Origin: Gemmatimonadales bacterium
Lineage (GTDB): Bacteria > Gemmatimonadota > Gemmatimonadetes > Gemmatimonadales > GWC2-71-9
Direction of reading: 5' to 3'
Assembly: GCA_035703525.1 (NCBI GenBank)
Contig: DASSYA010000005.1
Coordinates: 82,532 to 146,531 of the forward strand
Length of the DNA: 64,000 nucleotides
A program made the position numbers and the translations under genes. The notes under the pieces are model-generated. The model searched no databases. It saw only the letters and a list, made by a program, of their open reading frames with translations, and was not told the origin of the DNA. Below, piece after piece: positions 499 to 18,877 of the stretch. How positions within the stretch are numbered: the first letter of the stretch is position 1; every line of letters starts with the position of its first letter.

Positions 499-1590
<1,092 letters not shown>

Positions 1591-1615
1591 GCGCGACCGT
1601 CAGGTCGCGCTTCGG
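1591..1615. terminator. Candidate bidirectional stem-loop between convergent genes
   Basis: gcgcgacc-gtca-ggtcgcgc (8-bp perfect stem, 4-nt loop) followed by ttcgg. It starts 1 nt after the dnaJ stop and lies 45 nt from the stop of the minus-strand gene. Confidence 0.4.
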
Positions 1616-1659
1616 ATGTCGGCCGTTCCAGCCGCGGCCGCCGCGCTCCCCCAGGCCGC

Positions 1660-2328: not shown

Positions 2329-2391
2329 GGCACCTTCGTGTGGCAGGTCAGTGAGGCGGCGCGCAAGATCTTCGGGCGTTCGGCTCGGCCC

Positions 2392-3069
2392 CTAGGAACC
2401 GGACAGCAGCTTCACCGCGTGGTCGGCGATGGCTTGCATCTGTCGCTCGCGTTCGCGTGCCCAGCGCGGCATCCGGATCCCGTTGGCGACGAAGGCGGCA
2501 ATGGCGAGTCCGCCGAACATGCCGACGAGGATCAGCGCCTTGCCGGGCTTGCCGGCGGCGGCAACCACGGCGCCCATGACCGCCGACATCCCGCCCATCA
2601 GGAACCCCATTCCGGTCAGGGCCATGGCATCGCCCTTGATCGTGCTCAAGCGGAGCTGCTCGCCGTGCGCGGTCGGTTCGACGCAGATGTGCAGGTTGCC
2701 CTGGGCCCACTCGCGGAGTCCGCCCGAAGCGGTCACGGTCCCCTGCGTCCCGAACGTCGACCGGAATTCGGCGATCAACTGTTCCCATTCCCGGTCGGTC
2801 GGGGCACGCGGCAGGTCGACGACCTGGGAGACGCCGATGGGCAGTCCCATCGATCGACGGATCCGGGCGGGCGCGCCGCGGGCCTCGAGGCTCGCGACGG
2901 CGTCCCTCACACGGGCCGGTTCGATGCCGGCTTCCTGGCCGATCTGCTGGAGTTGCTCAAGGGTCAGACCACTGGATTCGGTTGGCAGCGACTGGCCGGG
3001 GGTGCTGCCCGTGGTCGCCAGAGAGAAGATGTCGCGGACTTCGTCCTCGTCGTAGCGTCGTGTCGTCAT
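2392..3069 (-). CDS. Hypothetical protein: soluble N-terminal domain plus C-terminal membrane segments
   Basis: ORF 2392..3126; the likely start is the ATG at 3069 (MTTRRYDEDEV...). C-terminal Gly/Ala-rich hydrophobic stretches (LTGMGFLMGGMSAVMGAVVAAAG, LILVGMFGGLAIAAFVANG). No recognisable family. Confidence 0.5.
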   Translation of the reverse strand: MTTRRYDEDEVRDIFSLATTGSTPGQSLPTESSGLTLEQLQQIGQEAGIEPARVRDAVASLEARGAPARIRRSMGLPIGVSQVVDLPRAPTDREWEQLIAEFRSTFGTQGTVTASGGLREWAQGNLHICVEPTAHGEQLRLSTIKGDAMALTGMGFLMGGMSAVMGAVVAAAGKPGKALILVGMFGGLAIAAFVANGIRMPRWARERERQMQAIADHAVKLLSGS

Positions 3070-3359
3070 GGGGAACGAGTGTACCGGGGTGGGGGGGCTG
3101 GCGCTAGGCCGTGGCCGGGCCGCCATGCTCCGCTCCTAGTGGTGGTCCACCATCTCGACATCATGCGCGTCGCCATCCCGCCATCGAACCCCACGGGGGC
3201 ACTCCTCGCTCCTCCACGTCGTTGCAACACCGAATGTGTGCCGCGACCGACATCATTGCCTCGCAGGCAATCGAACTCGCCGCTGCGCGGCTCAGAACCG
3301 ATTCCCTGCTCGACAAGATGTCGGTCACATGCCTGATTCGACCACGTCTGGGCTACGCC

Positions 3360-4228
3360 TCACCCCTCTGCCCTCACCACCCTCATCCGCCACCACTCCC
3401 AGCACCCGAACAGGAACATGCCTGCCCCGAAGATCTGCATTCCAATCGGGTTGCGCGCCTCGAGGGTGGCGAGCACGATGAGCATGATGCCCCCGGCCAG
3501 GCGTCCAACAATGCGGCTCCGTTGAGTGCGCCTGGCGTAGAAGGCGCGTCCGATCGCGTAGCTCACGATGGCGAGGAGGAACGGCAGCAGCGCAGTCATG
3601 AAGATCGCCTTGACGATGGTTGACAACGAGAGCGCAAGCGTGGGTTCGAAGCCGCGCAGGTCGGCGGTGGTGACGCCGCGCGACTCGAGGACGGTGCGGA
3701 GACGGAGCCTGGTCCGACGGAGCCGTCCCTCGACCGCGCGCTCGGAGAGATCAAGACCCTCGGCGATCCGAGCGAGTGAATGGCCCGCGAAGTAGTGCGA
3801 CTCGATCAGGTAGCGGCCATCGGGCGGCAGCTCGGCCAGGGCGGCGTGGAGGATCGTGTGCTGTTCCCTGGTCTCGAGTGCGGCACCCTCATCCGGCGCC
3901 TGGAGTGTGCCGGCCGGGACGTGGTCGAGTGGGACACTGGGGCGGCGCCTGTGCTCGTTGAAGAGGATGTTCCGGGCCACGGTCCGGAGCCAGGCACCCG
4001 GCCGGTCGGGGACACCGCGGGAGGGCCAGTAGCGGATCGCACGTAGCCAGCTCTCCTGGGCGATATCGTCGGCGAGCTGCCGATCGCCGTGGGAGGCGCG
4101 AAGAAGGGAGGCGCGGAGGCGATCGGCCTCCTTCCGCGACGCCCCCAGGTCGGTGCCTCAGGCATCGCCTCGGGCAGGTCGCGCAGCATGGCGTGCCGTT
4201 CCGGGGTGAGGTCGGGATGGTCGGGCAT
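3360..4228 (-). CDS. ECF-type sigma-70 factor fused to three C-terminal transmembrane segments; reading frame interrupted near 4142-4157
   Basis: Region 4 (GHSLARIAEGLDLSERAVEGRLRRTRLRL) runs without a stop into three hydrophobic helices. Region 2 (DDIAQESWLRAIRYW...PGAWLRTVARNILFNEHRRR) is in the same frame upstream of the GTG at 3980. That frame is closed by TGA at 4158-4160 and has no ATG/GTG/TTG before 3980. The ATG at 4228 lies in another frame. Confidence 0.7.
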
Positions 4229-4415
4229 GGTGGAAGGTAAGGGGCCGCCCCTACACCTCGGCGGAGGCGGGTCGTGTCCGCCTCGCTGACGAGCGTATCC
4301 CCGCGTACATCATTCCCCGAGTGCCGGGCTTGTTCGGGAGGGTCTGGGGCGTCCGGGAGCGGTACCGGTTGGGTGTGGCTGGGGCTGATGTCACCAAGGC
4401 GAAGGCGATCCTTGG

Positions 4416-4901
4416 TTAGCCCCGCCGCGCGGCCTCGATGGTCGCGATATCGATCTTCACCATCTCCATCATCGCCTCGAACGCGCGCTTGGCCGCGGCA
4501 GGATCGGGGTCGGTAATCGCTTCCGTGAGCGCGATCGGCGTGATCTGCCAATTGAGCCCCCACCGGTCCTTGCACCAGCCGCAGGCACTCGCCTGGCCGC
4601 CGTTCTCGATGATCGCATTCCAGTAGCGATCGGTCTCCTCCTGATCGACCGTGGCGACCTGAAAGGAGAAGGCCTCGGTGTGCGGGAATGCCGGTCCGCC
4701 GTTGAGCCCGAGACACGGAATCCCCAGGACGGTGAACTCGACCGTCAGCACATCACCGGACTTGCCTGATGGATAGTCGCCGGGCGAGCGGTGAATCGCG
4801 CCCACCGCCGAATCGGGAAAGGTGTCGGCGTAGAATCGCGCCGCCGCTTCGGCGTCGCCGTTGAACCAGAGACAGATCGTGTTCCTGGCGGGTGTCGACA
4901 T
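4416..4901 (-). CDS. VOC-superfamily protein (PhnB / 3-demethylubiquinone-9 3-methyltransferase-domain type)
   Basis: 161 aa. 'ICLWFNGDAEAAARFYADTFPDS...VLTVEFTVLGIPCLGLNGGPAF...EAFSFQVATVDQEETDRYW...CGWCKDRWGLNWQI' matches the pattern I know for this family. Confidence 0.75.
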   Translation of the reverse strand: MSTPARNTICLWFNGDAEAAARFYADTFPDSAVGAIHRSPGDYPSGKSGDVLTVEFTVLGIPCLGLNGGPAFPHTEAFSFQVATVDQEETDRYWNAIIENGGQASACGWCKDRWGLNWQITPIALTEAITDPDPAAAKRAFEAMMEMVKIDIATIEAARRG

Positions 4902-4902
4902 G

Positions 4903-5349
4903 TCAGCTCTCCTGGGGTGCCACCGTTGCGGTGTACCGACGACTTGCCATCACGGCCAGCACGATTCCAGCCGCGACCTGTCCCCACACGGCGACGATAC
5001 GGAGCGTCGACGCAGGCACCTGCCGACTGATGAACCAGTGCACCCCCGCGCCGGCGAGCCATGCGCCGAACAACATCCAGAACATGGCGAGGGCAACGAT
5101 CCGGTACCGATCGCCCAGGACGCGACGGTCCCGCTTGTCGAGCCGTGCGCCCCAGACCACCAGGGCGATCCCGAGGAGGAGCTGCACGCCGACGGCCACC
5201 GTGCGAACCGTGCTGGCGTCGGGGTGAGTGATCGGGGTGATCAGCCAGTTGCCGGCGGTACCGGCGAGTACACAGCCGAACAGGATCAGGACCACTCCAC
5301 TGCCGGTGCGGATCTTCATCGGGACTCCCTGGTGAGGGGCAAGCGGCAT
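4903..5349 (-). CDS. Small membrane protein (4 predicted TM segments)
   Basis: Hydrophobic ORF. The start is at 5349 or, more likely, the ATG at 5319 (MKIRTGSGVVLILFG...). Its stop is 2 nt from the start of the downstream gene. No family assigned. Confidence 0.5.
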   Translation of the reverse strand: MPLAPHQGVPMKIRTGSGVVLILFGCVLAGTAGNWLITPITHPDASTVRTVAVGVQLLLGIALVVWGARLDKRDRRVLGDRYRIVALAMFWMLFGAWLAGAGVHWFISRQVPASTLRIVAVWGQVAAGIVLAVMASRRYTATVAPQES

Positions 5350-5395
5350 GCTCTCACGGAACTTGGCGTGCCGCTGCCGAGGCGCAAGGGGCAGT

Positions 5396-5920
5396 TCACC
5401 GCGTCAGGATCGACAGGTAAGCCTGCCACGGCCCGACCTCCGCACGATACTGTTTCGCCATCACACGGGCCACCTGGGCGATGTGGCCGAGGTCGTGGAC
5501 GACCCAGGTCGCGAGGAGTTGCTCCAGGGTCACGCGTCCGAAGGCCGGGTGTTCGCCGGTGAGCTGAAGTTGATCGAGGGTAAGACTCCATCCGATGAGC
5601 TCGGCGAGGTTGCGTGCCCGGAGTTCGCTGAACCGTGCGAGCAGCTCGTCGATCGACCGGCCATTGAGCGCGTTGATCGCCCCGACCCGGTCGAACGGCT
5701 CGAATCGCCGATCCGGGCCCTGCGCAAGGATGGTGCGGGCCCGGACCACCCAGTCGCTCTCCTCGGCGCCGATCAGGTGGGCCACAATCTCGACCGGGCT
5801 CCACGTGTCGTGTCCCTCGGTAGCGTGGAGCCAAGGCGTCGACAACCCCGAAAGCAGTTCGCGAAGCACGAGCGGCGTGCGTTCGAGTACCGCGGCGGCA
5901 TTGGTGAGGTCAAAGGGCAT
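5396..5920 (-). CDS. DinB-family (DinB_2-like) metal-dependent four-helix-bundle protein
   Basis: 174 aa with spaced His residues typical of DinB-like proteins (WSPVEIVAHLIGAEE...; VVHDLGHIAQVARV). Confidence 0.7.
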   Translation of the reverse strand: MPFDLTNAAAVLERTPLVLRELLSGLSTPWLHATEGHDTWSPVEIVAHLIGAEESDWVVRARTILAQGPDRRFEPFDRVGAINALNGRSIDELLARFSELRARNLAELIGWSLTLDQLQLTGEHPAFGRVTLEQLLATWVVHDLGHIAQVARVMAKQYRAEVGPWQAYLSILTR

Positions 5921-5939
5921 GGTGCGATCCTCCGGCTAC

Positions 5940-7670
5940 CTACTCAAGGGACTTCAACACCGCCACCGCCGCCTTCCGCACCCGCGCCTGCCCGGCCGCC
6001 ACCTCTGCCGTCAAGTCGAGGTGCGGCAGCGTCATCTCCGGGATCGCCGCGATCGCACCGATGTAGTAGTCGCGCCAGGCAGCAATGATGGTCTGCTGCA
6101 ACGCCGCCGAGTCGGCGGCTGCCGCGATTGCCGCCCGCGAGAGTGCTCCCTCCGCGGCAAGCCGCCGCTCGGCGATCCCCGCCATCTCGATGATCGCAGC
6201 ACGAGCATACGTCGGCTCGTTGCCAGCCGTCAGGATCAGCGAGCTCGCCAGTGCACAATTCCCCACGTGCTGCAGCTCGGCGGCGCTCACCATGTCGATT
6301 CGATCGAGATCGACGTGATAGTACTGGTCGGTGAAGTGCCACATCAGCAGTCCCGGAATCCCGGCGGAGAGGAACGGGGAGTGGTCGCTCCCCCCCTCGT
6401 AGGGGTTCGCCTTGACGACCCAGCTGCCGCCGGTGGCGAGTGACTGATCGACACACCGCTGCTTGACGAAGTCGTTGAAGTAGTGCGGCCAGATGTCCTT
6501 GGCCGTCATCCGTTGGCCTTCGCCCCACTCGGTGTGCTGGTCCTCACCACGCACCCAGATCTTCGATGGATCGGGCATCTTCTCGATCAGGAAGGTGCCG
6601 CCGGTGAGCGCCGTGTTCTCGCCCACCATGTCGAGCGACATTCCCCACTTGATTCCGCGCGCCCGCACCGAATCCTCCGAGATGTAGCGCCGCGTCTGGG
6701 TGATCTCGACGCCCCAGAGCATCGTGATGGTGCGCCCCGGATCGATCTCCCCGGCTCGAAGCATCACGGCCGCCGTCCGCGCCATCTCGGCGAGCAGGCC
6801 GACACCGGTCGCGTTGTCATTGGCGCCCGGCTCCTGCACATGGGCCGAATAGACGAACCGCTCCTCCGGCGCGATCGACCCGCGGATCTCCGCCACGACG
6901 GTCCGCTCCGGCCGCTCCTCGAAGACCGACTGCACGTCGACGTGGGCACGCACCGGCCCCTTCGCCATCGCGGCCAGGAGATGTTCCTTCGACTCGAGCG
7001 AGAGGAAGATCGTCCAGATCCTGTTCGTGCTGTCGAACGCCATCGACCGGAAATTGATCGCGGTGCGATTCTTCGACTGCTGGTTGTAGGCCGGCAGCGT
7101 CTGCGCCTGCAGGATACCGATCGCGCCCTCGGGGATGGCGGTGCGGCCACGGCGCGCACCCGGTGCCGGCGCATTGATGAACACGATCTTGCCGCGCACC
7201 TCCGGACTGCCCTCAGGGACGATCTCGGCGGTGACACCGCCCGTCGGGGTGGGCCACGAGTTCGACGCCAGCATGTTGTGGTTGGTCGACCACTGCTGGA
7301 GCGGGGTCGACTCGCCCTCGAGTGTGATCGAGGCATCGAGTGGCGACCAGGCCAGCCCGCGGAGCGGACGGGACTCGATGCGGTACGTCAATCGGTCGGA
7401 GGGCTTGGCGCGATCCTCGCGCACGTAGCCGGCCGCTTCGAGGAGCCCGGCCACCGTGTCGATTCCCGCATCGAAGCCGCGGCTCCCCGGGTCGCGGTAG
7501 AACCGCTGGACGTAGTCGACGGTCGTGAACGCCCGGTCACCCGAGAGGGTCTTCCTGATCGGTTCCGTGATCGGGGCGAACGCCGGGTTGGCTCGGACCG
7601 GGCTGGCCTGCTGGGCACAGGCGAGGGTCGGGATGAACGACAGGGCGACGAGCAGGCGGAGCAGGGACAC
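5940..7670 (-). CDS. Secreted M28-family metallopeptidase (aminopeptidase-like)
   Basis: N-terminal signal peptide (MSLLRLLVALSFIPTLACAQQ), M28 metal-ligand motifs 'HVQEPGANDNATGVGLLAEMAR' and 'EGGSDHSPFLSAGIPGL'. Confidence 0.85.
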   Translation of the reverse strand: MSLLRLLVALSFIPTLACAQQASPVRANPAFAPITEPIRKTLSGDRAFTTVDYVQRFYRDPGSRGFDAGIDTVAGLLEAAGYVREDRAKPSDRLTYRIESRPLRGLAWSPLDASITLEGESTPLQQWSTNHNMLASNSWPTPTGGVTAEIVPEGSPEVRGKIVFINAPAPGARRGRTAIPEGAIGILQAQTLPAYNQQSKNRTAINFRSMAFDSTNRIWTIFLSLESKEHLLAAMAKGPVRAHVDVQSVFEERPERTVVAEIRGSIAPEERFVYSAHVQEPGANDNATGVGLLAEMARTAAVMLRAGEIDPGRTITMLWGVEITQTRRYISEDSVRARGIKWGMSLDMVGENTALTGGTFLIEKMPDPSKIWVRGEDQHTEWGEGQRMTAKDIWPHYFNDFVKQRCVDQSLATGGSWVVKANPYEGGSDHSPFLSAGIPGLLMWHFTDQYYHVDLDRIDMVSAAELQHVGNCALASSLILTAGNEPTYARAAIIEMAGIAERRLAAEGALSRAAIAAAADSAALQQTIIAAWRDYYIGAIAAIPEMTLPHLDLTAEVAAGQARVRKAAVAVLKSLE

Positions 7671-7703
7671 GCAAGAACCTCGAGAGGAGGGACGAGTGGG
7701 CCA

Positions 7704-7751
7704 GAGATCCCTCGACTACGCGCCCTCCGGGCGCTCCGCTCGGGATGACTC
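7704..7751. repeat. REP-like nested palindromic element
   Basis: gagatccctcgac...gcgccc-tcc-gggcgc...tcgggatgactc: a central 6-bp/3-nt hairpin flanked by atccc/gggat pairing. It contains the 16-mer ctccgctcgggatgac (7734-7749), whose reverse complement recurs at 17852-17867. Confidence 0.5.
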
Positions 7752-7770
7752 CTTGGAACCGGCCGGAAAG

Positions 7771-7815
7771 CTACACCCTTCCGATCAACACTCCGAGCGT
7801 GCCGAGGTCGGGTTC
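7771..7815 (-). repeat. Orphan copy of the ppk 3' end (att-like direct repeat, left)
   Basis: 40/45 nt identical to 13086-13130 in the same orientation, starting exactly at the stop codon. The minus-strand reading is EPDLGTLGVLIGRV* versus EPDRGTHGVLIGRV* in ppk. Confidence 0.8.
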
Positions 7816-7820
7816 AGCTT

Positions 7821-8151
7821 GGTCTCTTTCGCAATCTGGTACCTCGCGGTAGACTGATTCAGACCCTGACAGGGGCCCTGCCGCCTCAGGTGCCCCGTTA
7901 TCGACCCAGGAGAGTCGTTATGCCCCCCCCCCGCTCAGCCATCAGCCGACGTCTCCACACTCCTCCTGGGCCTCCACGACCAACTCCTGGCGTTGACCCT
8001 CACCGAATCGCTCGCTCGGTCGTGTCGCGTGGTTGGTGTGGCCGCGTCCTGGAACGAATTCCACGACGCACTCGATGCTCATCACCCTTCGGTTGCACTG
8101 ATCGACATCCTCGTCGGTGCCGACCGTGTGATGCCCTATCTGGGAGCCATC
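7821..8151 (+). repeat. Direct repeat copy A (331 bp): regulator leader plus first ~230 nt of the regulator CDS
   Basis: Aligns base-for-base with 9518-9851, apart from the poly-C length (10 vs 13) and 6 substitutions that I counted by eye. Confidence 0.9.
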
Positions 8152-8277
8152 CAACTACTGCGAGGAAAATCAGGGCCCTGGTTGGCAGCAGCTGAACTGC
8201 GGTTGGAGCCCGCTGGGCTAAATCCCGACCGGAGCCGGGGTCTGCCGACTGGAGAGGCCCCGGCGTCCGGACGCTGA
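7920..8277 (+). pseudogene. Truncated duplicate of the LuxR-type response regulator (first part of receiver only, then unrelated tail)
   Basis: Same SD+ATG+poly-C start as the full gene. The receiver frame (..TLTESLARSCRVVGVAASWNEFHDALDAHHPSVALIDILVGADRVMPYLGAI) is identical up to 8151, then diverges and stops at 8277. No HTH domain. Confidence 0.65.
7923..7932 (+). repeat. Poly-C tract (10 nt) immediately after the ATG at 7920
   Basis: Counted directly: atg + 10 C + gctcag. The tract length is 3n+1, so the ATG frame is out of register with the receiver frame. Confidence 0.9.
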
Positions 8278-8301
8278 GCAACACGGCAATTTCACCGAGG
8301 G

Positions 8302-9456
8302 ATGATGATGCGATCGATGAGAACATTCGGAGCCAACATGGGCTGGGTCTGCGTCCTGCTTGCTGTCATGCCGTTAAGACTCGTGGCACAGGACCTTGAG
8401 ACGGTTCTGGACGGGAGCACCTCGATCATCAGCCGCTTCACGGCGATCGGAGTTGCGCAGTCCACGATACTGGTTCCCGATCAGGACGAGAATCGAGTGC
8501 TTCTGGTCAATAGTCGAGGAGGTGCGCACCTCTCATTTGGAAGGGAGGGGTCCGGGCCGGGTGAGTTCCGCCGGATCGGCCGGCTCGGCGCGTACGGCAC
8601 CGACGGATTCTGGGTCGAAGATCGAATGCAGATGCGACTCCACCTGATATCGCCAGATGCGAAGTCCCTGGGGGAGCGACCGATTCCGACGCGGATTGGG
8701 ACGCATGACGACAGATCAGGCGCCGACTTCATGAGCAATGCAGGGGTCCGTGCTGCCTACACCGACGGATTGATGCTCGTGGAGGTCTCCGCGCCCGGCG
8801 AGCGTGCGTTCAGTGCCAATTGGACTGGCCGATCGTCGTCCGGCGACGACGTTGCTTTCGCTCTCGTGGATTCGAGTGGGACTGTACGAAGGATCGCCGG
8901 TTGGCGTCGCGGGGTCCGCCGTTGTTTCGCATCGCCCACTGGAGTCACGATGCGAACGCCGCTCTGCGCTGATCCAATTGTCGAGGTGAGCCCGTCTGGC
9001 GACAGGGTCCTGTTCATCGAGGGCGATGCTGATGCAGGCAAGGGACGATCACGCCAGTTTCAGGTCGTTATAGTCGATCGAAAGGGAAGCCCGGTCAGGA
9101 CGAGCACGATTTCCTACGCTCCGCTCCGGATCTCCGCGACGGTCCGCGACAGCATGGTCGAGGGAGTGGCGAAGGTGTTCCCGCCGGACATGGCAAAGGC
9201 GATTCGCGCAGCTCCCGTTCCGGGGTTCTTCTACCCAGTACGCACGGCGGTTGTTGCGGATGACGGTTCATTCGCACTGGAAGTCTGGGATGCAGACTTC
9301 GATCACCGATACCGGATCTTCGGTAGTGACGGAATCGAACGCCCTTCTGTCACGTTGCCGAGTAGCGATACGGTAATCGGTATGACTGGCGTGTTCTATT
9401 ACGTGCTCCGAACCGACACGGATGGGATCCAGACCCTCCTGCGCGGCCGGCGATAG
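8302..9456 (+). CDS. Secreted NHL-like / 6-bladed beta-propeller-type protein, paralog 1
   Basis: Signal peptide (GWVCVLLAVMPLRLVAQD). The 'FGREGSGPGEFRRIGRL' motif is typical of NHL/6-bladed propeller blades. Paralogous to 10624..11685 (shared GxGPGE blade motif and C-terminal 'YYVLRTDTDG' vs 'WYVMRTDKDG'). Confidence 0.7.
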   Translation: MMMRSMRTFGANMGWVCVLLAVMPLRLVAQDLETVLDGSTSIISRFTAIGVAQSTILVPDQDENRVLLVNSRGGAHLSFGREGSGPGEFRRIGRLGAYGTDGFWVEDRMQMRLHLISPDAKSLGERPIPTRIGTHDDRSGADFMSNAGVRAAYTDGLMLVEVSAPGERAFSANWTGRSSSGDDVAFALVDSSGTVRRIAGWRRGVRRCFASPTGVTMRTPLCADPIVEVSPSGDRVLFIEGDADAGKGRSRQFQVVIVDRKGSPVRTSTISYAPLRISATVRDSMVEGVAKVFPPDMAKAIRAAPVPGFFYPVRTAVVADDGSFALEVWDADFDHRYRIFGSDGIERPSVTLPSSDTVIGMTGVFYYVLRTDTDGIQTLLRGRR

Positions 9457-9517
9457 TTCATGGCGGAAGTGGCAGTGACCAGGCTGCGCGTCTGTGGTGC
9501 TCGCTCGGGGTCGTCCC

Positions 9518-9851
9518 GGTCTCTTTCGCAATCTGGTACCTCGCGGTAGACTGATTCAGACCCTGACAGGGGCCCTGCCGCCTCAGGTGCCCCGTTATCG
9601 ACCCAGGAGAGTCGTTATGCCCCCCCCCCCCCGCTCAGCCATCAGCCGGCGTCTCCACACTCCTCCTGGGCCTCCACGACCAACTCCTGGCGTCGACCCT
9701 CACCGAATCGCTCGCTCGGTCGTGTCGCGTGGTTGGTGTGGCCGCGTCCTGGAACGAATTCCACGACGCACTCGATGCTCATCACCCTTCGGTTGCACTG
9801 ATTGATATCCTTGTCGGTGCCGACCGTGTGATGCCCTATCTGGGAGCCATC
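9518..9851 (+). repeat. Direct repeat copy B (334 bp)
   Basis: See copy A. It covers the leader, SD, ATG, poly-C tract and N-terminal receiver codons of the full-length regulator. Confidence 0.9.
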
Positions 9852-10274
9852 GTGACCCAATACAGGTCGACCGCTTTCATCCTCTGCACCGCCGATCTCG
9901 ATGATCTCCTGGTGGAGCGGGCACTGGTGGCGGGCGTGGCCGGTGTGCTGGGACATGACTGCACCGCGGAGCAATTGCTCTCGGTGATCCAGTCAACTCT
10001 CCAGGGGAATGCGTGGCCCGCTGGTGTCGGCCGGCCCGCGCTGGGGCATGCCGGCCGTCAGCGCCCGCTCGTCGCCATCACGGTCAGGCAACGTCAGGTA
10101 TTGGAACTCCTCTGGCAGGGATTGACACACAAGGAGATCGCCGAATTCCTTGGCCGCGGGATCAAGACGGTTGAGGGGATCGTGGGCAAGCTCCGGAGGG
10201 CTCACGGCTTGAAGCGAGGCGAAGTCGCGCCGTGGGAGGTGATGAGGAGGGGACGTCCCTCGGGCGGCGATTAG
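9617..10274 (+). CDS. Orphan LuxR/FixJ-family response regulator (atypical receiver + GerE-type HTH); ATG separated from the receiver frame by a +1 offset in a 13-nt poly-C tract
   Basis: AGGAGA at 9605-9610, 6 nt before the ATG at 9617. Receiver frame: STLLLGLHDQLL...VALIDILVG...AFILCTAD...; HTH: 'LTHKEIAEFLGRGIKTVEGIVGKLR'. The span is 658 nt (3n+1). The ORF track only recovers 9729..10274 from an internal GTG that would lack beta-strand 1. Confidence 0.8.
9620..9632 (+). repeat. Poly-C tract (13 nt) immediately after the ATG at 9617
   Basis: Counted directly: atg + 13 C + gctcag. 12 or 15 C would fuse the ATG to the receiver frame as MPPPPAQPSAGVSTLLLGLHD... Confidence 0.9.
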
Positions 10275-10623
10275 GGAAATAAGGTGGCGGGAGGGCCTAA
10301 TGCGCCGTCTATTGAGGTAGGTACCGAAAGCGCATGGTGTCGGGTGGATGTCGAGGCTCGCTGGACGATAGCCTCCTGGCGTGTGAGCCCGGCGCTTCGA
10401 CGGACTCTGTGATCGCAACGCTCACTGCCGCGTGGTCGGTGAGAACGGGGGTTCTGTGGACGGGAAGGATTTGTTGGGCACAACCGTGAGGTGTCGTTCT
10501 CCAAACGTGACGTGGCCGAGAGAACGACGTCTTGGTTGCAGGAGGGGAGTGCTCGCGTGTGTTCTCTTGAATGTCATCCAGCTGATGTCGGTTCACTCCC
10601 AGCGGGAATGCACCTCGAAGTGC

Positions 10624-11685
10624 ATGCCCTCGCGACGCCTGAGTGGTCCCTCGAGACTCAGCTTGCGCTCCCTGGTTGCATGGCTGGCCATTTGCTCCGT
10701 TCTGCCCTGCGCTCCGTCGCTCGCAGCCCAAACCGGGGCCCGCATGTATTTCGGAGAAAATGTGGAGTTCGGGTCGGTCCTCTTCGGAGCGGAGACGCCC
10801 AATCAGGGCCTCTGTGTGATCGATGGATCAGATCAAAAAATCCTTTGCTTCGATCGAGCGGGGAAGTTGCGGTTCTCCGTCGGCCGACGCGGCGAAGGGC
10901 CCGGCGAGTCGACCGGCTTGTACCGTCTGGCGGTCTCCCCAACCGGTCGGGTGTTCGGTCTCGATTTCGCCCGTCAAATGGTGAATGTCTACGACCCGGG
11001 TGGGAAATTCGAGCGCTCACTCCGCTTGCCGATCCCTTTCAGTCAGGTTCTCAGTTTTCTCGCGCCCACAGACTCGCTTCTGGTTCTAACCGCGACGGCC
11101 TTTGATGCCGGCCGGGCTTCGGATTTCGGTGTGCACACGTTCCGCGTGTCCGACTCCTTGGTCTATCTCACCTCGTTCGGCCCATTGCCAGAAACGAATG
11201 ATCGTCGGGTACTCTCGATGTTCGGCAGTGGGATAGCGACCCTGACGCCTCGTGGAACACTACTCTACTCACGGCGCTACCCGTATGACCTGTTCGAATT
11301 CAGTCTCGACGGGACACAGGTCCTCACGGTTCAGGGACCCGTCCATCTGACCACAAGCCTGGATGAGTTGATTGAAGTCAATCGATCTGCGACAAAGACC
11401 ACGTTCAGCTATGTCGGAGCAGAGAAGCCTGAACGCGTCGGTTCGGCCTACGATGGTGGCAACGGACGATGGTATGTGATGCGGACCGATAAGGATGGGC
11501 ACAAACTCTTCGATGTCTTCGACGCGCGAACGGGCCGGTGGCTTCCCAGTATCCCGTCCCCGATTCGTGATCCAGATCTCTCCCTTTTGGGAATGGACTT
11601 CAAGAACGGGTTCTATCTCGGCTCGACTCTCTGCGATGATGCGCCGTGTGTCCTCCGGGACCCGCTCAAGATCCGCGGTCCCTAA
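10624..11685 (+). CDS. Secreted NHL-like / 6-bladed beta-propeller-type protein, paralog 2
   Basis: ORF 10432..11685. The likely start is the ATG at 10624, giving signal peptide MPSRRLSGPSRLSLRSLVAWLAICSVLPCAPSLAAQ. Blade motif 'VGRRGEGPGESTGLYRLAVSPTGRVFGLD'. Confidence 0.65.
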   Translation: MPSRRLSGPSRLSLRSLVAWLAICSVLPCAPSLAAQTGARMYFGENVEFGSVLFGAETPNQGLCVIDGSDQKILCFDRAGKLRFSVGRRGEGPGESTGLYRLAVSPTGRVFGLDFARQMVNVYDPGGKFERSLRLPIPFSQVLSFLAPTDSLLVLTATAFDAGRASDFGVHTFRVSDSLVYLTSFGPLPETNDRRVLSMFGSGIATLTPRGTLLYSRRYPYDLFEFSLDGTQVLTVQGPVHLTTSLDELIEVNRSATKTTFSYVGAEKPERVGSAYDGGNGRWYVMRTDKDGHKLFDVFDARTGRWLPSIPSPIRDPDLSLLGMDFKNGFYLGSTLCDDAPCVLRDPLKIRGP

Positions 11686-11736
11686 CGCCGTGGTGGTGCA
11701 GTACCGCTCGACTCACCCGCAGTGAAGGAGAACTAC

Positions 11737-12174
11737 ATGTCCAGACTTCTGATCAGAATCGCAGCGACGTTGGCGCTGACGGTCGGTGGCGCCAACGCGA
11801 TCGGTGCGCAGGTACTGTCACCAGGTGTGGGAACTGGAGCTAGCGCCCAGGCACAAACGCCCAATGACTGCTTCTGGTTCTGTACCAACGTTCTTCATCC
11901 GATCGACGGGACCGTCATCGGACACCAATGCAACAACTATGGCTATGGCCACGTGGTACCGGAGCACGGCTTCTCCTGCATCGCGACCTCAGAATGGCGC
12001 ATCCTGGTGTCCGGGAATTTGTGTGACGGTCCGCTGGCAGTTCTCACCGCGGATGGAGTGCCGACCGTCCTTGCCAACGGGTGTTCACCGGGGAATGTGG
12101 CAGCCGCGTTCGCAACGGAAATGCCTTCTCACGGAGGGGTGATCGTAACCGCAAATAACTGGAGAGCAACATGA
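11737..12174 (+). CDS. Small secreted Cys-rich protein, paralog A (145 aa)
   Basis: AAGGAG at 11725-11730, 6 nt before the ATG at 11737. Signal peptide MSRLLIRIAATLALTVGGANAIGAQ. Six Cys including CFWFC. No family recognised. Confidence 0.6.
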   Translation: MSRLLIRIAATLALTVGGANAIGAQVLSPGVGTGASAQAQTPNDCFWFCTNVLHPIDGTVIGHQCNNYGYGHVVPEHGFSCIATSEWRILVSGNLCDGPLAVLTADGVPTVLANGCSPGNVAAAFATEMPSHGGVIVTANNWRAT

Positions 12175-12638
12175 TCCGTGTCATCATGCCACAACTGATC
12201 CTTGGGATCGTACTCGCTGCGGCTCCGGCCGCTGCTCAGTCGGTGCACCTCAGCTCCGGCTCCGGTGGAGCTACCGCGATGGCCCAGGTGCCACTGTGTG
12301 ACAAGTTCTGCGTGTGGCAGACCCACCCGAACACCGGAGACCCGATCGGCGTGGCATGCATCCAAGATGTGAATTCTCCTCCGAGCAATGAACAGCACGG
12401 GAGAGATTGTTCGACCTCCGGCTTCGACTGTTCCCTATTCCATCCCTGCCCGTTTGGAAGCGCGTTCGGCATTCTCCGCCCCGACCGCACGGTGCTGGCT
12501 TCTGGCACTGGTTGCAGCTGGACTCAATTCGTGGCGTTCTCCAATGAAAGGTCTGGTGTCGGTGGAACGATGCTTCCTCTACCAGGAGGCAGGCTTATCG
12601 TCGCATCTCCGCAACCTCCCGTCCTAGTCTCCGAGTAG
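12171..12638 (+). CDS. Small secreted Cys-rich protein, paralog B (155 aa)
   Basis: ATGA start/stop overlap with the preceding gene. Signal peptide ...LILGIVLAAAPAAAQS. It shares CxxxC...HPxxGxxIGxxC...HG..C...G.GCS spacing with paralog A. Confidence 0.6.
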   Translation: MIRVIMPQLILGIVLAAAPAAAQSVHLSSGSGGATAMAQVPLCDKFCVWQTHPNTGDPIGVACIQDVNSPPSNEQHGRDCSTSGFDCSLFHPCPFGSAFGILRPDRTVLASGTGCSWTQFVAFSNERSGVGGTMLPLPGGRLIVASPQPPVLVSE

Positions 12639-13085
12639 CATCTGGCGTGATAGGTAGGCTCAGGCGTGCCACGGGGTGCTTCGGTGTTTCTCAACGCCGA
12701 AGTCACTCCCTGGCATCGCTCGCCGACCGCCACCTGTAGGTCGCCTCTTGGTTCGATTGTCGCCGTGGAGTTCACCATTTGCTAGGTGAACAAGGCCGGG
12801 TATCGGACCCCAAGTCATCCAGTCGGTGGTGCCTGCCCCCCACCTGACGCCCGAATGACACCCGGTCACTTCATTCCATGGAGCGCACTCCGACCCCGAC
12901 CCCGATCCGGAACCTGTCAACGATTGTGAGACACGGGTGACCTTACATTTACTGTGCCCCCGCCGTGGCGAGCACGTCCGCCGTCGGGTTGATCCGGAAT
13001 CGACCGGAACGCTGATGTCGTTGACTTCGACGGGAGCTGGCTCCCTGAACTGAGGATGGGAGCCAGTGTCGCGGGAGGCCCACTT

Positions 13086-13130
13086 CTACACCCTCCCGAT
13101 CAACACCCCGTGCGTCCCGCGGTCGGGTTC
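13086..13130 (-). repeat. ppk 3' end = right-hand att-like direct repeat
   Basis: 40/45 identity to 7771-7815 (see that feature). Confidence 0.8.
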
Positions 13131-15227
13131 GCCCTGCTCCGGACGTCGCTGGTGGTAGCTGCCGTCGGGCAGCAGGTCCCACGCCTGGCGGTTGTCCTTG
13201 AGCATCAGCTCCAGCAACCGGCGCACCTCCGCCCGGTGACGCGGATCCTCGATCGGCACCGCCACCTCGACCCGACGCTCCAGGTTCCGCGGCATCCAGT
13301 CGGCCGACGAGATGTAGACCTCCTCCCGCCCACCGTTCCGGAACACCGCCGCACGTGAGTGTTCGAGGAACCGCCCCACGATCGAGATCACCCGGATGTT
13401 CTCGCTCACCCCCACGATCCCGGGCCTGAGGCAACAGATGCCCCGGATGATCAGGTCGACCTGCACCCCGGCCTGCGACGCCTCGTAGAGCGCATGAATC
13501 ACATCGCGATCCACCAGCGAATTCATCTTCGCCAGGATCCGACCCTGACGCCCGGCCCGCGCATGCTCGGTCTCTCGCCGGATCGCCGCCAGGACCTTCC
13601 GCTTGAGCCACCGTGGGGCCACGACCAGCTTCCGGAACTCCCCCGGGATCGCGAATCCCGTCAGCACATTGAACAGCCCCGACACGTCGGCCCCGATATC
13701 CTCATCGCAGGTCAGGAGCCCGAGGTCGGTATAGAGGCGTGCCGTCTTCGGGTTGTAGTTGCCGGTACCGACATGGACATAGCGCCGGATCGCGGTCCCC
13801 TCGCGCCGGACGATGAGGAGGATCTTCGCGTGCGTCTTGAGACCGGCATCGCCGTAGCTCACGTGCACACCGATCTCCTCGAAGCGCTTGGCCCACGAGA
13901 TGTTGTTCTCCTCGTCGAACCGCGCCTGCAACTCGATCAGCACCGCAACCTGCTTCCCCCGTTCGGCGGCATGCGCCAGCAAGCGCGCGATCTCGCCACC
14001 GGTCCGGTAGAGCGTGATCTTGATGGCCAGCACGTCAGGATCATCCGAGGCGACCGCGATCAATCGCTCGATCGAGGCGTCGAACGAATCGAACGGATGG
14101 TGCAGCAACAGGTCGCCCTCGCGGATCGCCTCGAAGATGTCACGGTGGTCGGCGAGCCGCTTCGGCACGCCCGGCACGAACGGCGGGTCCTTGAGCGCGG
14201 GCACGTCGAGCGCCGCAATCGCGTGGAGGGCGGTGGCATCGAGCAATCCCTCGACCTCGAAGATGTCGTCGCTGGTGAGTGCCAGACCCTCGCCGGCATG
14301 CGCCTCGTTGAACTCCTCGAGCAGCAGGTGCCGCATCGTGTCGGGCATCACCGGCTGCACCTCGATCCGCACCACCTCGCCGAACTTGCGGTTGCGCACC
14401 TCTTCCTGGATCAACTCCAGCAGGTCGTCGGCCTCGTCGTTGTCACCCTGACCGACCTCGAGATTGAGGTCGGTGTTGCGGGTGATCCGGAAGAAGTGGC
14501 TGCCCAGGATCGTGATCCCGGGGAAGAGCGCGTCGAGGTGCGCCTCGATCAGCAGCTCGAGCGGCAGGAACTGGTTGGCCGTGAGCAGCGGTACCCAGCG
14601 CGGCAGCAACTCGGGCACCTTGACGCGCGCGAACCGCGGCTCGCCCTGCTCGTCAAGCAGCGACACCGCGAGCGAGAGCGAGAGATTCGAGATATGCGGG
14701 AACGGGTGCGCCGGATCGACCGCGAGCGGCGTGAGCACCGGGTAGACATTCGCGAGGAAGTAGGCCGAGAGATGGGCGCGGTCGCGGTCGGGCAGGGCGG
14801 CCCAACTGTCGTGCAACACGATCCCGTGACGGGCGAGTGCCGGGACCAGGTCGAGCGTGAGGCATCGGCCGTGTTGCGCCACCATGCTCCGCGCCGTCTC
14901 GCGGATCGCGAGCAGTTGCTGGGCTGGCGGCATCGCATCGGCGACCTGCTCGCTGACGCGCGCAGCGACCTGCTCGCGGATGCCGGCCACGCGCACCTGG
15001 AAGAACTCGTCGAGGTTGCCCGAGAAGATGGCCAGGAACTTGATCCGTTCGAGGAGCGGGGTGCGCGGATCGAGCGCCTCGTGCAGCACGCGTCGATTGA
15101 ACTCCAGCCAGGACAACTCGCGGTTCTGGTAAAGTGCCGGATCGTGCAGATCGGGCGGTGTCGGTGCGGTTGCTGCCACCTCGTGCCGATCGCCGGGGCG
15201 TTCGGGCAACGATGTCGTCATCGCCAT
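13086..15227 (-). CDS. ppk: Polyphosphate kinase 1
   Basis: 713 aa. 'YQNRELSWLEFNRRVLHEA', 'RIKFLAIFSGNLDEFFQVRVAG' and C-terminal PLD-like domains ('THAKILLIVRRE', 'RFLEHSR') are characteristic of PPK1. Confidence 0.95.
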   Translation of the reverse strand: MAMTTSLPERPGDRHEVAATAPTPPDLHDPALYQNRELSWLEFNRRVLHEALDPRTPLLERIKFLAIFSGNLDEFFQVRVAGIREQVAARVSEQVADAMPPAQQLLAIRETARSMVAQHGRCLTLDLVPALARHGIVLHDSWAALPDRDRAHLSAYFLANVYPVLTPLAVDPAHPFPHISNLSLSLAVSLLDEQGEPRFARVKVPELLPRWVPLLTANQFLPLELLIEAHLDALFPGITILGSHFFRITRNTDLNLEVGQGDNDEADDLLELIQEEVRNRKFGEVVRIEVQPVMPDTMRHLLLEEFNEAHAGEGLALTSDDIFEVEGLLDATALHAIAALDVPALKDPPFVPGVPKRLADHRDIFEAIREGDLLLHHPFDSFDASIERLIAVASDDPDVLAIKITLYRTGGEIARLLAHAAERGKQVAVLIELQARFDEENNISWAKRFEEIGVHVSYGDAGLKTHAKILLIVRREGTAIRRYVHVGTGNYNPKTARLYTDLGLLTCDEDIGADVSGLFNVLTGFAIPGEFRKLVVAPRWLKRKVLAAIRRETEHARAGRQGRILAKMNSLVDRDVIHALYEASQAGVQVDLIIRGICCLRPGIVGVSENIRVISIVGRFLEHSRAAVFRNGGREEVYISSADWMPRNLERRVEVAVPIEDPRHRAEVRRLLELMLKDNRQAWDLLPDGSYHQRRPEQGEPDRGTHGVLIGRV

Positions 15228-15601
15228 TCCTCTCCGCGACGGCGCTCCGCCCCCGTCAACGCGGTGAGTGCGGTGCTCGCCAAGCCGATGATCAACCCAC
15301 CCCAGAAGGCGGGCCAGAAGCCATCAATCACGAACCCGAGCCCGAACGACTGCGAGAGTCGTGCCGTCGCGAGCAGCAGCAGCGCATTCACCACCAGCAT
15401 GAACAGCCCGAAGGTCAGCACGATCAGCGGGCAGGTCAGGATCGTGATCAACGGCTTGAGCAGCGCGTTGACCAGCGAGAAGACCAGGGCCACCCCGACC
15501 AGGGCGATCGGCTCGCCGGTCCAGTGAACGCCCGACACGAACGTCACCGCGACATAGAGCGCCAGTGTCGTGATCAGCAGGCGCACCACGAAGCGCTTCA
15601 T
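15218..15601 (-). CDS. Phage-holin-family (superfamily IV, 4-TM) membrane protein
   Basis: 127 aa. '[11 protein letters not shown]...[34 protein letters not shown]' matches the family pattern. Its stop overlaps the ppk start by 10 nt and its start overlaps the mnmA stop by 4 nt. Confidence 0.65.
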
Positions 15602-16674
15602 GCCGCGCTCGCGATCACGCCACCACCGAGGACCAGACCGTTGGGGCCGTAGCAGACCCCGGACTGCCCGGGCGCGATGGCACGGATCGGGACGTGCAGG
15701 TCGAAGGTCACGGCGTCGCCTCGCACCTGCCTGACGGTGGCGGGCACGGCCTGGCTGCGGTAGCGGAGTTGCACCTCACACTGATCGCCCTCGGCGAGCG
15801 GGGTGTCGACCAACCAGTTGCATTCCTCGAGTGTCACGACATCGCCCAGCAGCGCATCGGCATCGCCAACCACCACTTCCCGCGTCTCCGGCCGCACCCC
15901 CAGCACGTAGAGCGGTCGACTCCGGCCACCGGGGAGTCCGCGGCGCTGGCCAACGGTGTAGCCGGCGAAGCCGTCGTGCTCGCCCACCACGGTGCCATCG
16001 GCGGTGACGAGATGGCCGGGCGAGAGGGCGGGGGCATCGGCCGGCAGGTGCTGCTTGAGCACCTGCACATAATCCCCATCGGGAACGAAGCAGATCTCGA
16101 CGCTCTCCGGCTTGTCAGCGGTCACGAGGCCCGCTGCGCGTGCGGCATCCCGTGTCTCGGCCTTGGTCATCGTGCCGACCGGGGTCAGCATCCGTGCCAC
16201 CACGGCACGGTCGATCCCCCAGAGGAAGTAGCTCTGGTCCTTGTTCGCGTCGTCGCCGCGGAACAGTTGGCCACCCTCGGCGCGCGCGTAGTGTCCCGTC
16301 GCGAGCCAGTCGCACCCGAGGGCATCGGCGTGGGCGAGCAAGTCACGAAACTTGGTGAACGAGTTGCAGCGCACACAGGGGATCGGGGTCCGGCCGCTGG
16401 CATACTCCTCGACGAAGTCACGGATCACCCGATCGGAGAAGCGGTCCTCGAGATTGAGGACGTAGTGCGGGATCCCGAGCGTATGGGCGACGCTCTGGGC
16501 GTCGAAGATCGAATCGAGCGAGCAGCACGGGCGGTCGGGCACGTCCTCGCCGTGGCAGAAGAGCTTCATCGTGGCGCCGATGACCTCGTATCCCTGCTCG
16601 ACCAGCATCGCCGCCGCGAGCGACGAATCCACCCCGCCGCTCATCGCGACGAGGACCCGTCCCTTGTCAGGCAC
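15598..16674 (-). CDS. mnmA: tRNA 2-thiouridine(34) synthase MnmA
   Basis: PP-loop '[15 protein letters not shown]', catalytic Cys context '[13 protein letters not shown]', 'DQSYFLWG'. Confidence 0.95.
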
Positions 16675-17836
16675 GTCCGAGTGCCGTGCTGAGACCGCGC
16701 ACCTTCTCGACGATGCCGGGGAGGACCGCGATCACGCGTGCGATATCGGCGTCGGTGGTCTCATGCCCCATCGAGAACCGGATGGTCGAGAGCGCCATCG
16801 GACGGTCGACGCCCATCGCCACGAGGACATGGGACGGCTCGATGCTCCCGGTCGAGCATGCCGATCCACCCGAGCAGCAGATCCCCGCGAGGTCGAGATG
16901 CATCAGGAGCGATTCGGCATCGGTCCCCGGCATGCAGACCGAGAGCACATGCGGGGCACGCGGCGAGTCGGCAGCGTTGATGTGGAGGCCGGTGATCGCG
17001 GCTTGCAGCTCGGTCGCCAGTCGATCACGGAGTGCTCCGAGACGAGCGATGTGATGGTCGAGCTCGGCATGTGCGATCTGGGCGGCGCGACCCATCGCGA
17101 CGGCGCCCGCCACGTTCTCGGTGCCGGGCCGGATCCCGAACTGCTGACCGCCACCATGGATGATCGCCTCGATGAGCTTGCGGTTCCGGACGATCAGCGC
17201 GCCGACGCCCTTCGGCGCCCCGATCTTGTGGCCGCTCAGTGAACAGAGATCGGCGTGGATCGCCTCGAGGTCGATCGCGATCTTGCCGAAGGCCTGGACG
17301 GCATCGGTGTGCAATGGCACGCCGGCGGCGCGACATCGCGCGCCGATCTCCGCCATCGGCTGGATCACACCGGTTTCATTGTTGACCCACATCACCGACA
17401 CCAGACTGGGCTGCTCCAGGAGCACGCGGTCGAGGGCGTCCATGTCAAGGATGCCGTCGGTGCCCACCGGGAGGATCGTCTCGCGGCCACCGAGTCGGGT
17501 CACGGCGTGGGCCGACGCGAGGGCGGCCTTGTGCTCGATCGCGGTGGTCACCACATGCATCTCGCGACCGGCGGCCTTGGCGGCCATGGCGGCGCCGACG
17601 ATGGCGAGGTTATCGGCCTCGGTGCCGCCCGAGGTGAAGATCACCTGATTGGGCTGGACCCCGACCGCGGCGGCGAGTTCGCGCTTGGCCTGTTCGAGGC
17701 CGGCCCGGGCCCCGCGGCCCAAGCAGTGGGCGGAGGAGGGGTTCCCCCAGCTCTCCCGGAAGAACGGCAGCATCGCGTCGAGCACTTCGGCGCGAACGGG
17801 CGTGGTCGCGGCGTAATCGAGGTAGGTCGTGGTCAT
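16667..17836 (-). CDS. Cysteine desulfurase (NifS/IscS family, PLP-dependent)
   Basis: '[10 protein letters not shown]', '[13 protein letters not shown]', PLP-Lys '[16 protein letters not shown]', active-site '[10 protein letters not shown]'. Overlaps the mnmA start by 8 nt. Confidence 0.9.
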
Positions 17837-17851
17837 GGATGGAATTTAGCA

Positions 17852-18045
17852 CGTCATCCCGAGCGGAGGCGGCAACGCCGCCGGAGTCGGCCGAGCCGCG
17901 GCCGTCAGCCGAGCCGCGGCCGTCAGGCCGCGGTTTGCTGCGCGAATCGGAGGAGCAATGCCGAGCCGCGGGCGTCAGCCCGCGGTTTGGTGCGCGAATC
18001 GGCGGAGCGGAACCGCGGTGCGAGGCGAACACAGCCGCGGCTCGG
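17852..18045. repeat. Composite intergenic repeat array rich in CCGCGG palindromes
   Basis: The 18-mer gccgagccgcggccgtca occurs at 17889-17906 and 17907-17924, with a 1-mismatch copy at 17959-17976. A ~33-nt unit (g[gc]ccgcggttt.gtgcgcgaatcgg.ggagc) occurs at 17925 and 17977. An inverted partial copy gccgcggctcggc lies at 18033-18045. The array begins with the 16-mer gtcatcccgagcggag shared with 7734-7749. Confidence 0.6.
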
Positions 18046-18052
18046 CTTGCAG

Positions 18053-18769: not shown

Positions 18770-18785
18770 GGCTGAAAGGTAGTGC

Positions 18786-18877
18786 GAGGTGGGTCCTGAG
18801 TCCTGCGAGGCGTCGCGATCACGGCCTCCGGCCCGCGGGAATGGATGCATGCAATCTCAGGACTCAGGACTCACCTC
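18786..18877. repeat. Heptad-repeat hairpin element H1
   Basis: The left arm gaggtgggtcctgagtcctgcgag pairs with the right arm ctcaggactcaggactcacctc (about 20 of 22 nt), with a ~46-nt loop. The arms are made of 7-nt units (gtcctga / ctcagga). The right arm ends at the permease D stop codon. Confidence 0.6.

Follow-up and report, generated by a model that had tools for sequence, protein, structure and literature searches.

The last 45 nucleotides (nt) of the ppk gene, stop codon included, occur twice in a 64-kb stretch of DNA from a Gemmatimonadales bacterium (the window, or W; L-numbers below denote the contigs and assemblies compared with it). The second, orphan copy lies next to a gene for an M28 peptidase and is the far edge of a hypervariable island without an integrase, which occupies the interval between ppk and the M28 gene in one Gemmatimonadales clade. 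Judged from the comparison of these loci, the repeat pair appears to be an inherited feature of the locus and not the scar of a recent 5.3-kb integration. The island itself consists of a LuxR-type regulator beside the M28 gene and of interchangeable, secreted-looking proteins (beta-propellers and small Cys-rich proteins, and DsbA-like ones in relatives). The initial annotation had interpreted the repeats as the footprint of site-specific integration. That a duplicated ppk end brackets accessory DNA of atypical composition holds; a discrete, recent, att-bounded unit of 5.3 kb is not borne out.

The duplicated ppk end and its counterparts in relatives

The ppk gene (13086–15227, minus strand) is intact and encodes a PPK1 protein of 713 amino acids (aa) with the Pfam domains PP_kinase_N, middle, C_1 and C. 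Its last 14 codons and stop codon (13086–13130, the resident copy) match the orphan (7771–7815, minus strand) in direct orientation at 40 of 45 positions. On the minus strand the orphan/resident pair reads EPDLGTLGVLIGRV and EPDRGTHGVLIGRV, each followed by a stop. Two of the five differences are non-synonymous (R to L and H to L) and three are synonymous. The identity ends 1–2 nt from the stop codon on one side and at position -45 on the other, beyond which the 5/9 matches in the next 9 nt are noise, and the longest identical run between the two copies is 11 nt. The coordinates, orientation, synonymous changes and sharp ends of the match had all been claimed initially and were reproduced, the start at the stop codon to within 1–2 nt. 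No further 45-mer with at least 28/45 matches to the tail was found on either strand of the whole window, and the genomic background for a 45-mer against the tail is 12.6 ± 3.1 matches; the orphan is therefore far beyond chance. Because an independent Logan short-read contig (L081, SRR25158252) is identical at every base over the orphan and the DNA around it, breaking 35 nt on, inside a repeat, the orphan is not an assembly artefact.

The orphan matches the consensus of the clade's ppk tails at 41 of 45 positions, and the tail of L093 equally well (41/45), which upholds the view that it is the end of a real ppk allele. Its synonymous states (GGC, GGA and GGA, against three GGG codons in the resident copy) all occur in L001, L002, L084 or L093, and the three GGG codons of the resident tail, which L082 shares, are derived. 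The orphan has just two private changes, both non-synonymous. Carrying the allele states of other clade members, the orphan would have been copied some time ago from an ancestral-like or foreign ppk allele. The ppk protein is 94% identical in amino acids to those of L001 and L002.

A comparison of the spacer between the regulator and the M28 gene reveals a common register. From the poly-C tract at the regulator start, the window, L084 and L093 are colinear through segments of 68, 39, 45 and 40 nt to the M28 start. The exceptions are an additional insert of 63 nt in the last segment of the window and a first segment of 32 instead of 68 nt in L082. The 39-nt segment (7816–7854 in the window, no strand assigned), which starts with GTCTACCG, has the same length in W, L082, L084 and L093 at 59–64% identity, and is recognisable in L089. 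The orphan occupies the 45-nt segment. An ordinary search for a second tail copy in L082, L084/85 and L093 found none, and no orphan tail was found in any of the relatives fetched through ppk. When the 45-mers in the same register are compared with each genome's own ppk tail, however, L093 matches at 26/45, L084 at 25/45 and L082 at 21/45, and this register is the best offset in each intergenic region (next best 22, 21 and 19). Against all 45-mers of these genomes, the empirical P values, which are optimistic, range from 2e-4 to 7e-3 for single alleles; the three combined give 5.5e-5, or 2e-3 if the final 15 nt are excluded.

L089 retains a shorter remnant. Its M28 gene has neither ppk nor the regulator upstream, but still has the 39-nt segment there and, of the tail copy, the final 15 nt, which match the tail at 12/15; a deletion of 39 nt lies between the two. 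L089 is nested in the clade, with an M28 gene 85–86% identical in nucleotides to L084 and L093 and 83% to the window (L084 and L093 share 89%). Decayed tail copies at the same position in relatives suggest that the duplication of the ppk end is ancestral to the locus; on these alignments, a ppk-tail copy at the orphan position seems to be ancestral to the clade and to have decayed in most lineages. The 68-nt and 39-nt segments of the window are only 59–68% identical to those of L084 and L093. Thus only the 45 nt homologous to ppk have been renewed, which is a signature of recombination between the copies (gene conversion, unequal or site-specific exchange). A tandem duplication followed by a deletion was rejected as the source of the orphan: it needs a deletion that ends exactly at the stop codon, and it leaves the in-register vestige of the relatives unexplained.

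Cargo of the island and its turnover

In about 22 Gemmatimonadales loci, ppk is followed by a convergent gene for a 363-aa protein, in most of them at a distance of 10–100 nt. Its homologue in the window, the order-wide ancestral neighbour of ppk (499–1590, plus strand), is here 11.5 kb from ppk. Every genome of the window clade instead has a low-GC3 cassette (GC3, GC content at third codon positions) immediately after ppk, convergent with it and made of the same kinds of genes; its GC3 is 0.60–0.79 as measured in the window, L001, L002, L004 and L084. The position between ppk and the regulator with M28 is conserved in the window, L082, L084/85 and L093, and on the ppk side also in L001, L002 and L004; the contigs of L001, L002, L004 and L005 end inside the cassette, so that their far edges are not visible. 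In L084/L085, ppk is followed by genes of 754, 372, 231 (DsbA-like), 87 and 52 aa, the regulator and M28. In L093 the order is M28, regulator, genes of 318, 390, 141, 379 and 140 aa, and ppk. The regulator is the only gene conserved among the islands, the cargo being otherwise unrelated, and none of the relatives has a homologue of the window's cargo that exceeds about 40% local identity.

The difference between L001 and L093 is particularly clear, as their ppk/mnmA flanks are 94% identical and their cargo has no similarity; this is a case of rapid replacement of the cassette. The L001 cargo (12160–16628) contains a GWxTD-like protein of 857 aa, a 419-aa propeller and a thioredoxin-like protein, and L093 (9817–15245) has five small to medium open reading frames (ORFs) without Pfam match. 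L082 is much closer to the window. Its Ppk protein is identical, and the nucleotide identity is 99.6% from window position 17889 down to 9620, in the poly-C tract of the regulator; past this point a different intergenic allele is followed by an M28 gene with 95–96% identity. As a whole, L082 1–16994 forms a mosaic against window 940–20151 with identities of 95.3%, 99.6%, 95.0% and 97.8%. The breakpoint falls exactly at a C22 tract, beside a 36-nt loss that removes the ribosome-binding site and start codon of the regulator, and could be a real recombination or a chimeric assembly join. L082 also lacks the DinB-like gene of the window (5396–5920).

These comparisons bear directly on the idea of a recent unit. 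The initial annotation had stated that it would be refuted by relatives that share the gene order but lack the orphan repeat. By ordinary search this is essentially what was found, since L084/L085/L086, L093 and the M28 side of L082 share the order ppk, cassette, regulator, M28; the decayed vestige persists in its fixed register. An empty site of the kind predicted, in which the hairpin and M28 come straight after ppk, was seen in no relative; the order-wide neighbour of ppk is the 363-aa gene. No locus among those compared has ppk adjoining M28 without a cassette, and no presence/absence polymorphism of the island was found in them.

Other genes have entered the same interval elsewhere in the order: L020 has chromate resistance genes there, L024 an FGE-sulfatase gene and L003 a 576-aa gene. 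The downstream end of ppk is thus a general hotspot of gene gain across the order. The first two, a ChrB and ChrA set (L020, 12083–16628) and the FGE-sulfatase-like gene (L024, 12323–13324), lie between ppk and the 363-aa gene. Distant M28 orthologues (73–79%) belong to a different, conserved operon without the upstream region, which indicates that it is this clade that has M28, together with a changing cargo, between ppk and the 363-aa gene. In L090 (3–1082), M28 adjoins a protein that by eye looks like Cas3, close to the 363-aa gene. In the core genes ppk and M28 the window is the outgroup of the clade, and ppk diverges between species by 11–13%.

The DNA between the repeats has a GC content of 0.57–0.64, against 0.65–0.70 in the flanks, and its genes have a GC3 of 0.63–0.73, against 0.82–0.91 in the flanking genes, in agreement with the earlier description of less GC-rich, accessory DNA. 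All genes between the copies lie on the plus strand and converge with ppk. Scans of the ORFs of 7771–13085 found no domain of a recombinase, phage or mobile element. A six-frame translation of 12620–13090 had no Pfam or PHROG match and no recombinase remnant; this was the remnant check proposed initially, and with the ORF scans it supports the claim that the segment lacks a recombinase. The scanned cargo of L003, L005, L020, L024 and L084 has no recombinase domain, the precomputed Pfam matches for L082, L084/85 and L093 contain no recombinase or mobile-element genes, the island has no Rfam match and the window has no tRNA genes. Direct repeats do lie at both boundaries, one of them the 3' end of the target, although they are imperfect, and the islands of the relatives are accompanied only by the 21–26/45 vestige. 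With no recombinase and no empty site, and with seemingly no usable repeat in the relatives, the region does not fit the class of integrase-driven islands. Nothing on ppk as a target of integration came up in a literature search. A metagenome scan for the tail motif GTGTTGATCGGNAGGGTGTAG gave only a chance match in an unrelated contig of 50% GC (L083) and did not recover the JGI contig of L082, so the scanned collection lacks coverage of this lineage.

Four cargo genes are present, all on the plus strand. The first (8302–9456) encodes a protein of 384 aa whose N-terminus is signal-peptide-like and which matches a propeller family weakly (DUF5128, E 0.037). It is almost unique to the source genome, its best other match among 5.8e9 proteins being 27% identical, and exact-protein look-ups of it and of two versions of the regulator returned no match. 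The second (10432–11685; GC3 0.67) encodes a 6-bladed beta-propeller of the DUF5128-like type with a GEGPGE motif (PF17170, E 2.9e-7), and its true start is probably downstream of 10432. Two Cys-rich proteins with signal-peptide-like N-termini follow, one of 150 aa (11722–12174; GC3 0.66), which has no Pfam or NCBIfam match and belongs to no known family, and one of 155 aa (12171–12638; GC3 0.65), likewise without Pfam or NCBIfam match and outside any known family.

The 447 nt from 12639 to 13085 are non-coding, as had been noted. They include a spacer (12639–12989, no strand assigned) that is 100% identical in L082 and has no recombinase remnant, and a segment of about 95 nt next to ppk (12990–13085, minus strand) with terminator-like hairpins. 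This segment is 78% identical to that of L093, another species with a different cargo, a conservation that suggests a ppk 3' flank or terminator and not cargo. The hairpin stems, predicted from the sequence, are 13037–13045/13058–13066 and 13072–13078/13092–13098, the second spanning the stop codon. Upstream of ppk, a 127-aa ORF (15218–15601; PF04020 in the precomputed annotation of relatives) overlaps mnmA at its end and ppk at its start and is kept in L082, L084 and L085. From this overlap and conservation, mnmA, the ORF and ppk probably form one operon.

On the other side, the M28 gene (5940–7670, minus strand; PF04389) constitutes the conserved distal flank, with nucleotide identities of 82–84% to L084, L093 and L089 and 96% to L082. 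Between its leader and the orphan lies the lineage-specific insertion of about 63 nt (7706–7768, no strand assigned), a hairpin resembling a repetitive extragenic palindromic (REP) element that is absent from L082, L084, L093 and L089. It is an imperfect palindrome, GTCATCCCGAGCGGAGCGCCCGGAGGGCGC...GGGATC, flanked by two short sequences that resemble each other (CTTTCCGGCC and TCTCTGGCCC). A related motif occurs at 17853–17870, within the block of 99.6% identity to L082 and about 20–35 nt from its end.

Internal duplication and the poly-C tract of the regulator

The segment is not uniform and holds an internal duplication. The two copies of a 333-nt direct repeat, R, at 7821–8151 (copy A, plus strand) and 9518–9851 (copy B, plus strand) bracket the gene for the 384-aa protein; they are 96–98% identical and differ by five substitutions and by 3 nt in the length of a poly-C tract. 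Copy A comprises a promoter, a C10 tract (7923–7932) and the N-terminus of the regulator, which is cut at 8151, and thus constitutes a truncated regulator ahead of the 384-aa gene. Copy B comprises the promoter of the regulator, its poly-C tract and the first 73 or so codons. Both copy A and the 384-aa gene are missing from L082. The arrangement of the copies around an intervening gene suggests the single-crossover insertion of a circular piece, or an unequal exchange. A third tail copy was sought between the modules (9468–9518) as a sign of tandem accretion, and only a short trace was found, at 9505–9512, just upstream of copy B, which matches the beginning of the orphan at 7/8. From the place of this trace beside copy B, the tail copy predates the duplication of R.

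The regulator (9617–10274, plus strand) is a response regulator of the LuxR/GerE type with matches to the Pfam families GerE, Sigma70_r4_2 and Response_reg; its orthologues in L002, L084 and L093 have 63–65% amino acid identity. By-eye alignment of its receiver (9633–10274) with these orthologues places HD at the usual acidic pair and His at the conserved Lys (VLGHD). No histidine kinase gene adjoins it. From these residues, the regulator may have an atypical receiver that is not phosphorylated. The possibility that it is a foreign replacement, raised by its nucleotide identity of 68–70% to the others, was set aside: by ppk and M28 the window is likewise the outgroup, and in every pair the regulator has changed about twice as fast as ppk.

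The ATG of the regulator at 9617 is directly followed by a C13 tract (9620–9632) and is out of frame with the receiver ORF, for which the listed start is the GTG at 9729. Among the strains the regulator starts with ATG (or TTG/GTG) and an immediate poly-C tract, conserved in position and variable in length. The tract is C10 and C13 in the window, C13 in L093, C16 in L084–86 and C22 in L082; start codons and tracts lie at 7920–7932 and 9617–9632 in the window, 10441–10462 in L082, about 9795–9811 in L084, 1–16 in L086 and about 9990–10002 in L093. Both ATGs of the window are one base out of frame, and C9 or C12 would restore MPPP(P)AQPSAGVSTLLLGLHD; the TTG start of L084 is in frame.

Simple-sequence contingency loci bring about phase variation by changes in the length of homopolymers, as in Neisseria or Haemophilus. 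One of their defining features is found here: the tract lies at the start codon, sets the frame, and differs in length between strains, as read from assemblies. The likeness extends to a C tract of 10 to 22 directly after the start of a regulator, kept in position. The differences are that the host is an environmental member of the Gemmatimonadales, and that the lengths come from assemblies and may carry errors. In sequence terms the poly-C tract has the appearance of a phase-variable contingency switch, although its assembled lengths may contain homopolymer errors, and it is a more promising lead for follow-up than the repeat pair. Several short-read contigs break at the tract. Runs of at least 9 C or G are over-represented in the window as a whole, with 11 tracts and 19 overlapping 9-mer matches against about 2 expected from shuffles. 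Further sites are 752–761, 29764–29772, 30155–30164, 35607–35615, 45314–45323, 46832–46840, 49191–49199, 53427–53435, just after an ATG, and 62597–62605.

Origin of the repeat pair and significance

We favour, tentatively, an explanation in which the orphan has been kept in good condition by gene conversion within an inherited repeat pair. A single early duplication would have joined an ancestral cassette to ppk 45 nt before the stop codon and regenerated the gene end, by an insertion of the e14/icd kind or by an illegitimate one; the mechanism is no longer recoverable, and by analogy the duplication is compatible with an ancient e14/icd-like event. The locus would then have been inherited, with cargo swapped by homologous recombination in the conserved flanks in the style of replacement islands. 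The mosaic blocks of L082 (99.6%, 95% and 97.8%) are what such exchange is expected to leave. In the window lineage, the orphan would have been re-homogenised with a ppk tail by short-patch gene conversion or unequal exchange, which would explain the fresh 45 nt beside segments of 59–68% identity. The duplication of the 333-nt repeat R would subsequently have brought in or bracketed the 384-aa gene. The repeat pair would have no present function, its five mismatches and identical runs of at most 11 nt being those of a decaying scar, and the orphan would have gained its two non-synonymous changes after copying.

Several observations weigh against this explanation. All comparison sequences are metagenome-assembled genomes or metagenome contigs. 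Ordinary and gapped local alignments of the relatives' spacers with the ppk tail are not significant, and the in-register test was devised after the GGTGTA motif and the equal segment lengths had been noticed. The 39-nt segment of L082 is 79% identical to that of L084 although its M28 gene is 96% window-like, so that either the history has been scrambled by recombination or L082 is a chimera at the C22 tract. No genome is in the pre-insertion state, which leaves the origin step a pure inference. In addition, a copy that had already decayed to about 55% identity could not serve as the target of gene conversion. The lineage must therefore have kept its copies similar continuously, or have received a fresh copy from an unsampled lineage. 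Repeated regeneration by site-specific recombination would explain a fresh copy at least as simply.

An import of the distal island together with the orphan from another lineage, by homologous or homology-facilitated illegitimate recombination, is unlikely. The mismatches would then mainly represent the divergence between donor and recipient ppk, in keeping with the 11% difference between orphan and resident copies, which equals that of ppk between species, and with the occurrence of the three synonymous differences as existing polymorphisms in the clade. The intergenic allele of the window is an outlier with respect to L082, L084 and L093, and the mosaic identity to L082 also fits an import. 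However, the problem is merely moved, since the donor also needs a fresh repeat; searches of genome, metagenome and protein collections turned up no donor, and with the window as outgroup in core genes its divergent intergenic region may be vertical.

Somewhat less credible still is the proposal that the tail copies act as attL and attR: a mobilisable island would enter the ppk 3' end by means of a recombinase in trans and bring a substitute gene end, and the fresh repeat would come from a recent excision and re-integration or from a cassette swap. In the E. coli precedent described in PMC6379469 (Hill et al. 1989 as cited there), e14 and phage 21 enter the 3' end of icd, the insert supplies a substitute end and a pseudo-fragment remains. 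As in e14/icd, the 3' end of a coding gene is hit, the gene stays intact and the direct repeats include the stop codon. The precise placement of the repeats at the gene end, the atypical composition between them, and different cargo at the same site in close relatives all accord with this proposal. So does the refreshed stretch of exactly 45 nt beside diverged neighbours, in which the orphan has the allele states of other members, as if one copy came from another host. By contrast, e14 encodes an integrase and varies between strains in its presence at a defined att site. In the present case neither the island nor the cargo of the relatives, as scanned or precomputed, has an integrase; neither an empty site nor variation in the presence of the island came to light, and the cargo does not resemble that of a phage. 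In three lineages the repeat that accompanies the island is a mere vestige, identical runs between the two copies do not exceed 11 nt, and the 95 or so nt past the resident stop are conserved across species with different cargo. It is improbable, too, that the repeats are the working sites of an integrase-less exchange of cassettes with genes for secreted proteins, in which a recombinase in trans would regenerate the ppk end and the phase-variable poly-C tract would gate expression.

Just as improbable is a templated patch seeded by microhomology, in which the ppk tail was copied upstream of M28 during break repair, primed by a native ATCGCGCGGGTGTAT motif similar to the final 15 nt of ppk, in an event independent of the island boundaries. 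L089 speaks in favour of it: its M28 region is homologous on both sides of the orphan position, with no ppk or regulator upstream and a 39-nt gap at the tail-like stretch, and its native 15-mer matches the tail end at 12/15. Yet its M28 identities nest L089 in the island clade, and its state is more simply derived by loss of the island and a 39-nt deletion; the operon of the distant M28 orthologues lacks such an upstream region. Least probable of all is a selected element in the divergent control region of M28 and the regulator, mimicking the ppk stop-codon hairpin or pairing as RNA with read-through into the ppk 3' end: the orphan is far better conserved than the flanking intergenic DNA and both copies have a predicted hairpin with the stop codon in the loop, but the relatives let the copy decay, there is no Rfam match, and two private changes that are both non-synonymous imply no coding constraint.

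Among known systems, the island resembles the replacement flexible genomic islands defined by Lopez-Perez, Martin-Cuadrado and Rodriguez-Valera 2014 (PMC4033161). Compared at the sequence level, the region has the features examined for this class: a fixed position with conserved flanks, unrelated cargo in near-identical genomes, no mobility genes and an atypical composition. The exposed or secreted-looking cargo also corresponds. The mosaic of border identities is suggestive of homologous exchange (99.6% to L082 over window 17889–9620 and 95–98% beyond, with a breakpoint at C22 that is a possible assembly chimera). Unlike the islands of that definition, which are not described with duplicated gene ends as brackets and carry glycosylation clusters, this one contains beta-propellers and small Cys-rich proteins, and a regulator with a poly-C tract heads the island.

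A footprint with the textbook look of an att site can thus mislead, as it may be an inherited, mostly decayed structure at a hypervariable locus. Were the repeats active after all and served by a recombinase in trans, the locus would represent a new kind of cassette-exchange site at a housekeeping gene. For the little-studied Gemmatimonadota, the analysis documents a flexible island of the replacement type, in which the regulator and its poly-C tract remain constant and secreted-looking genes are swapped.

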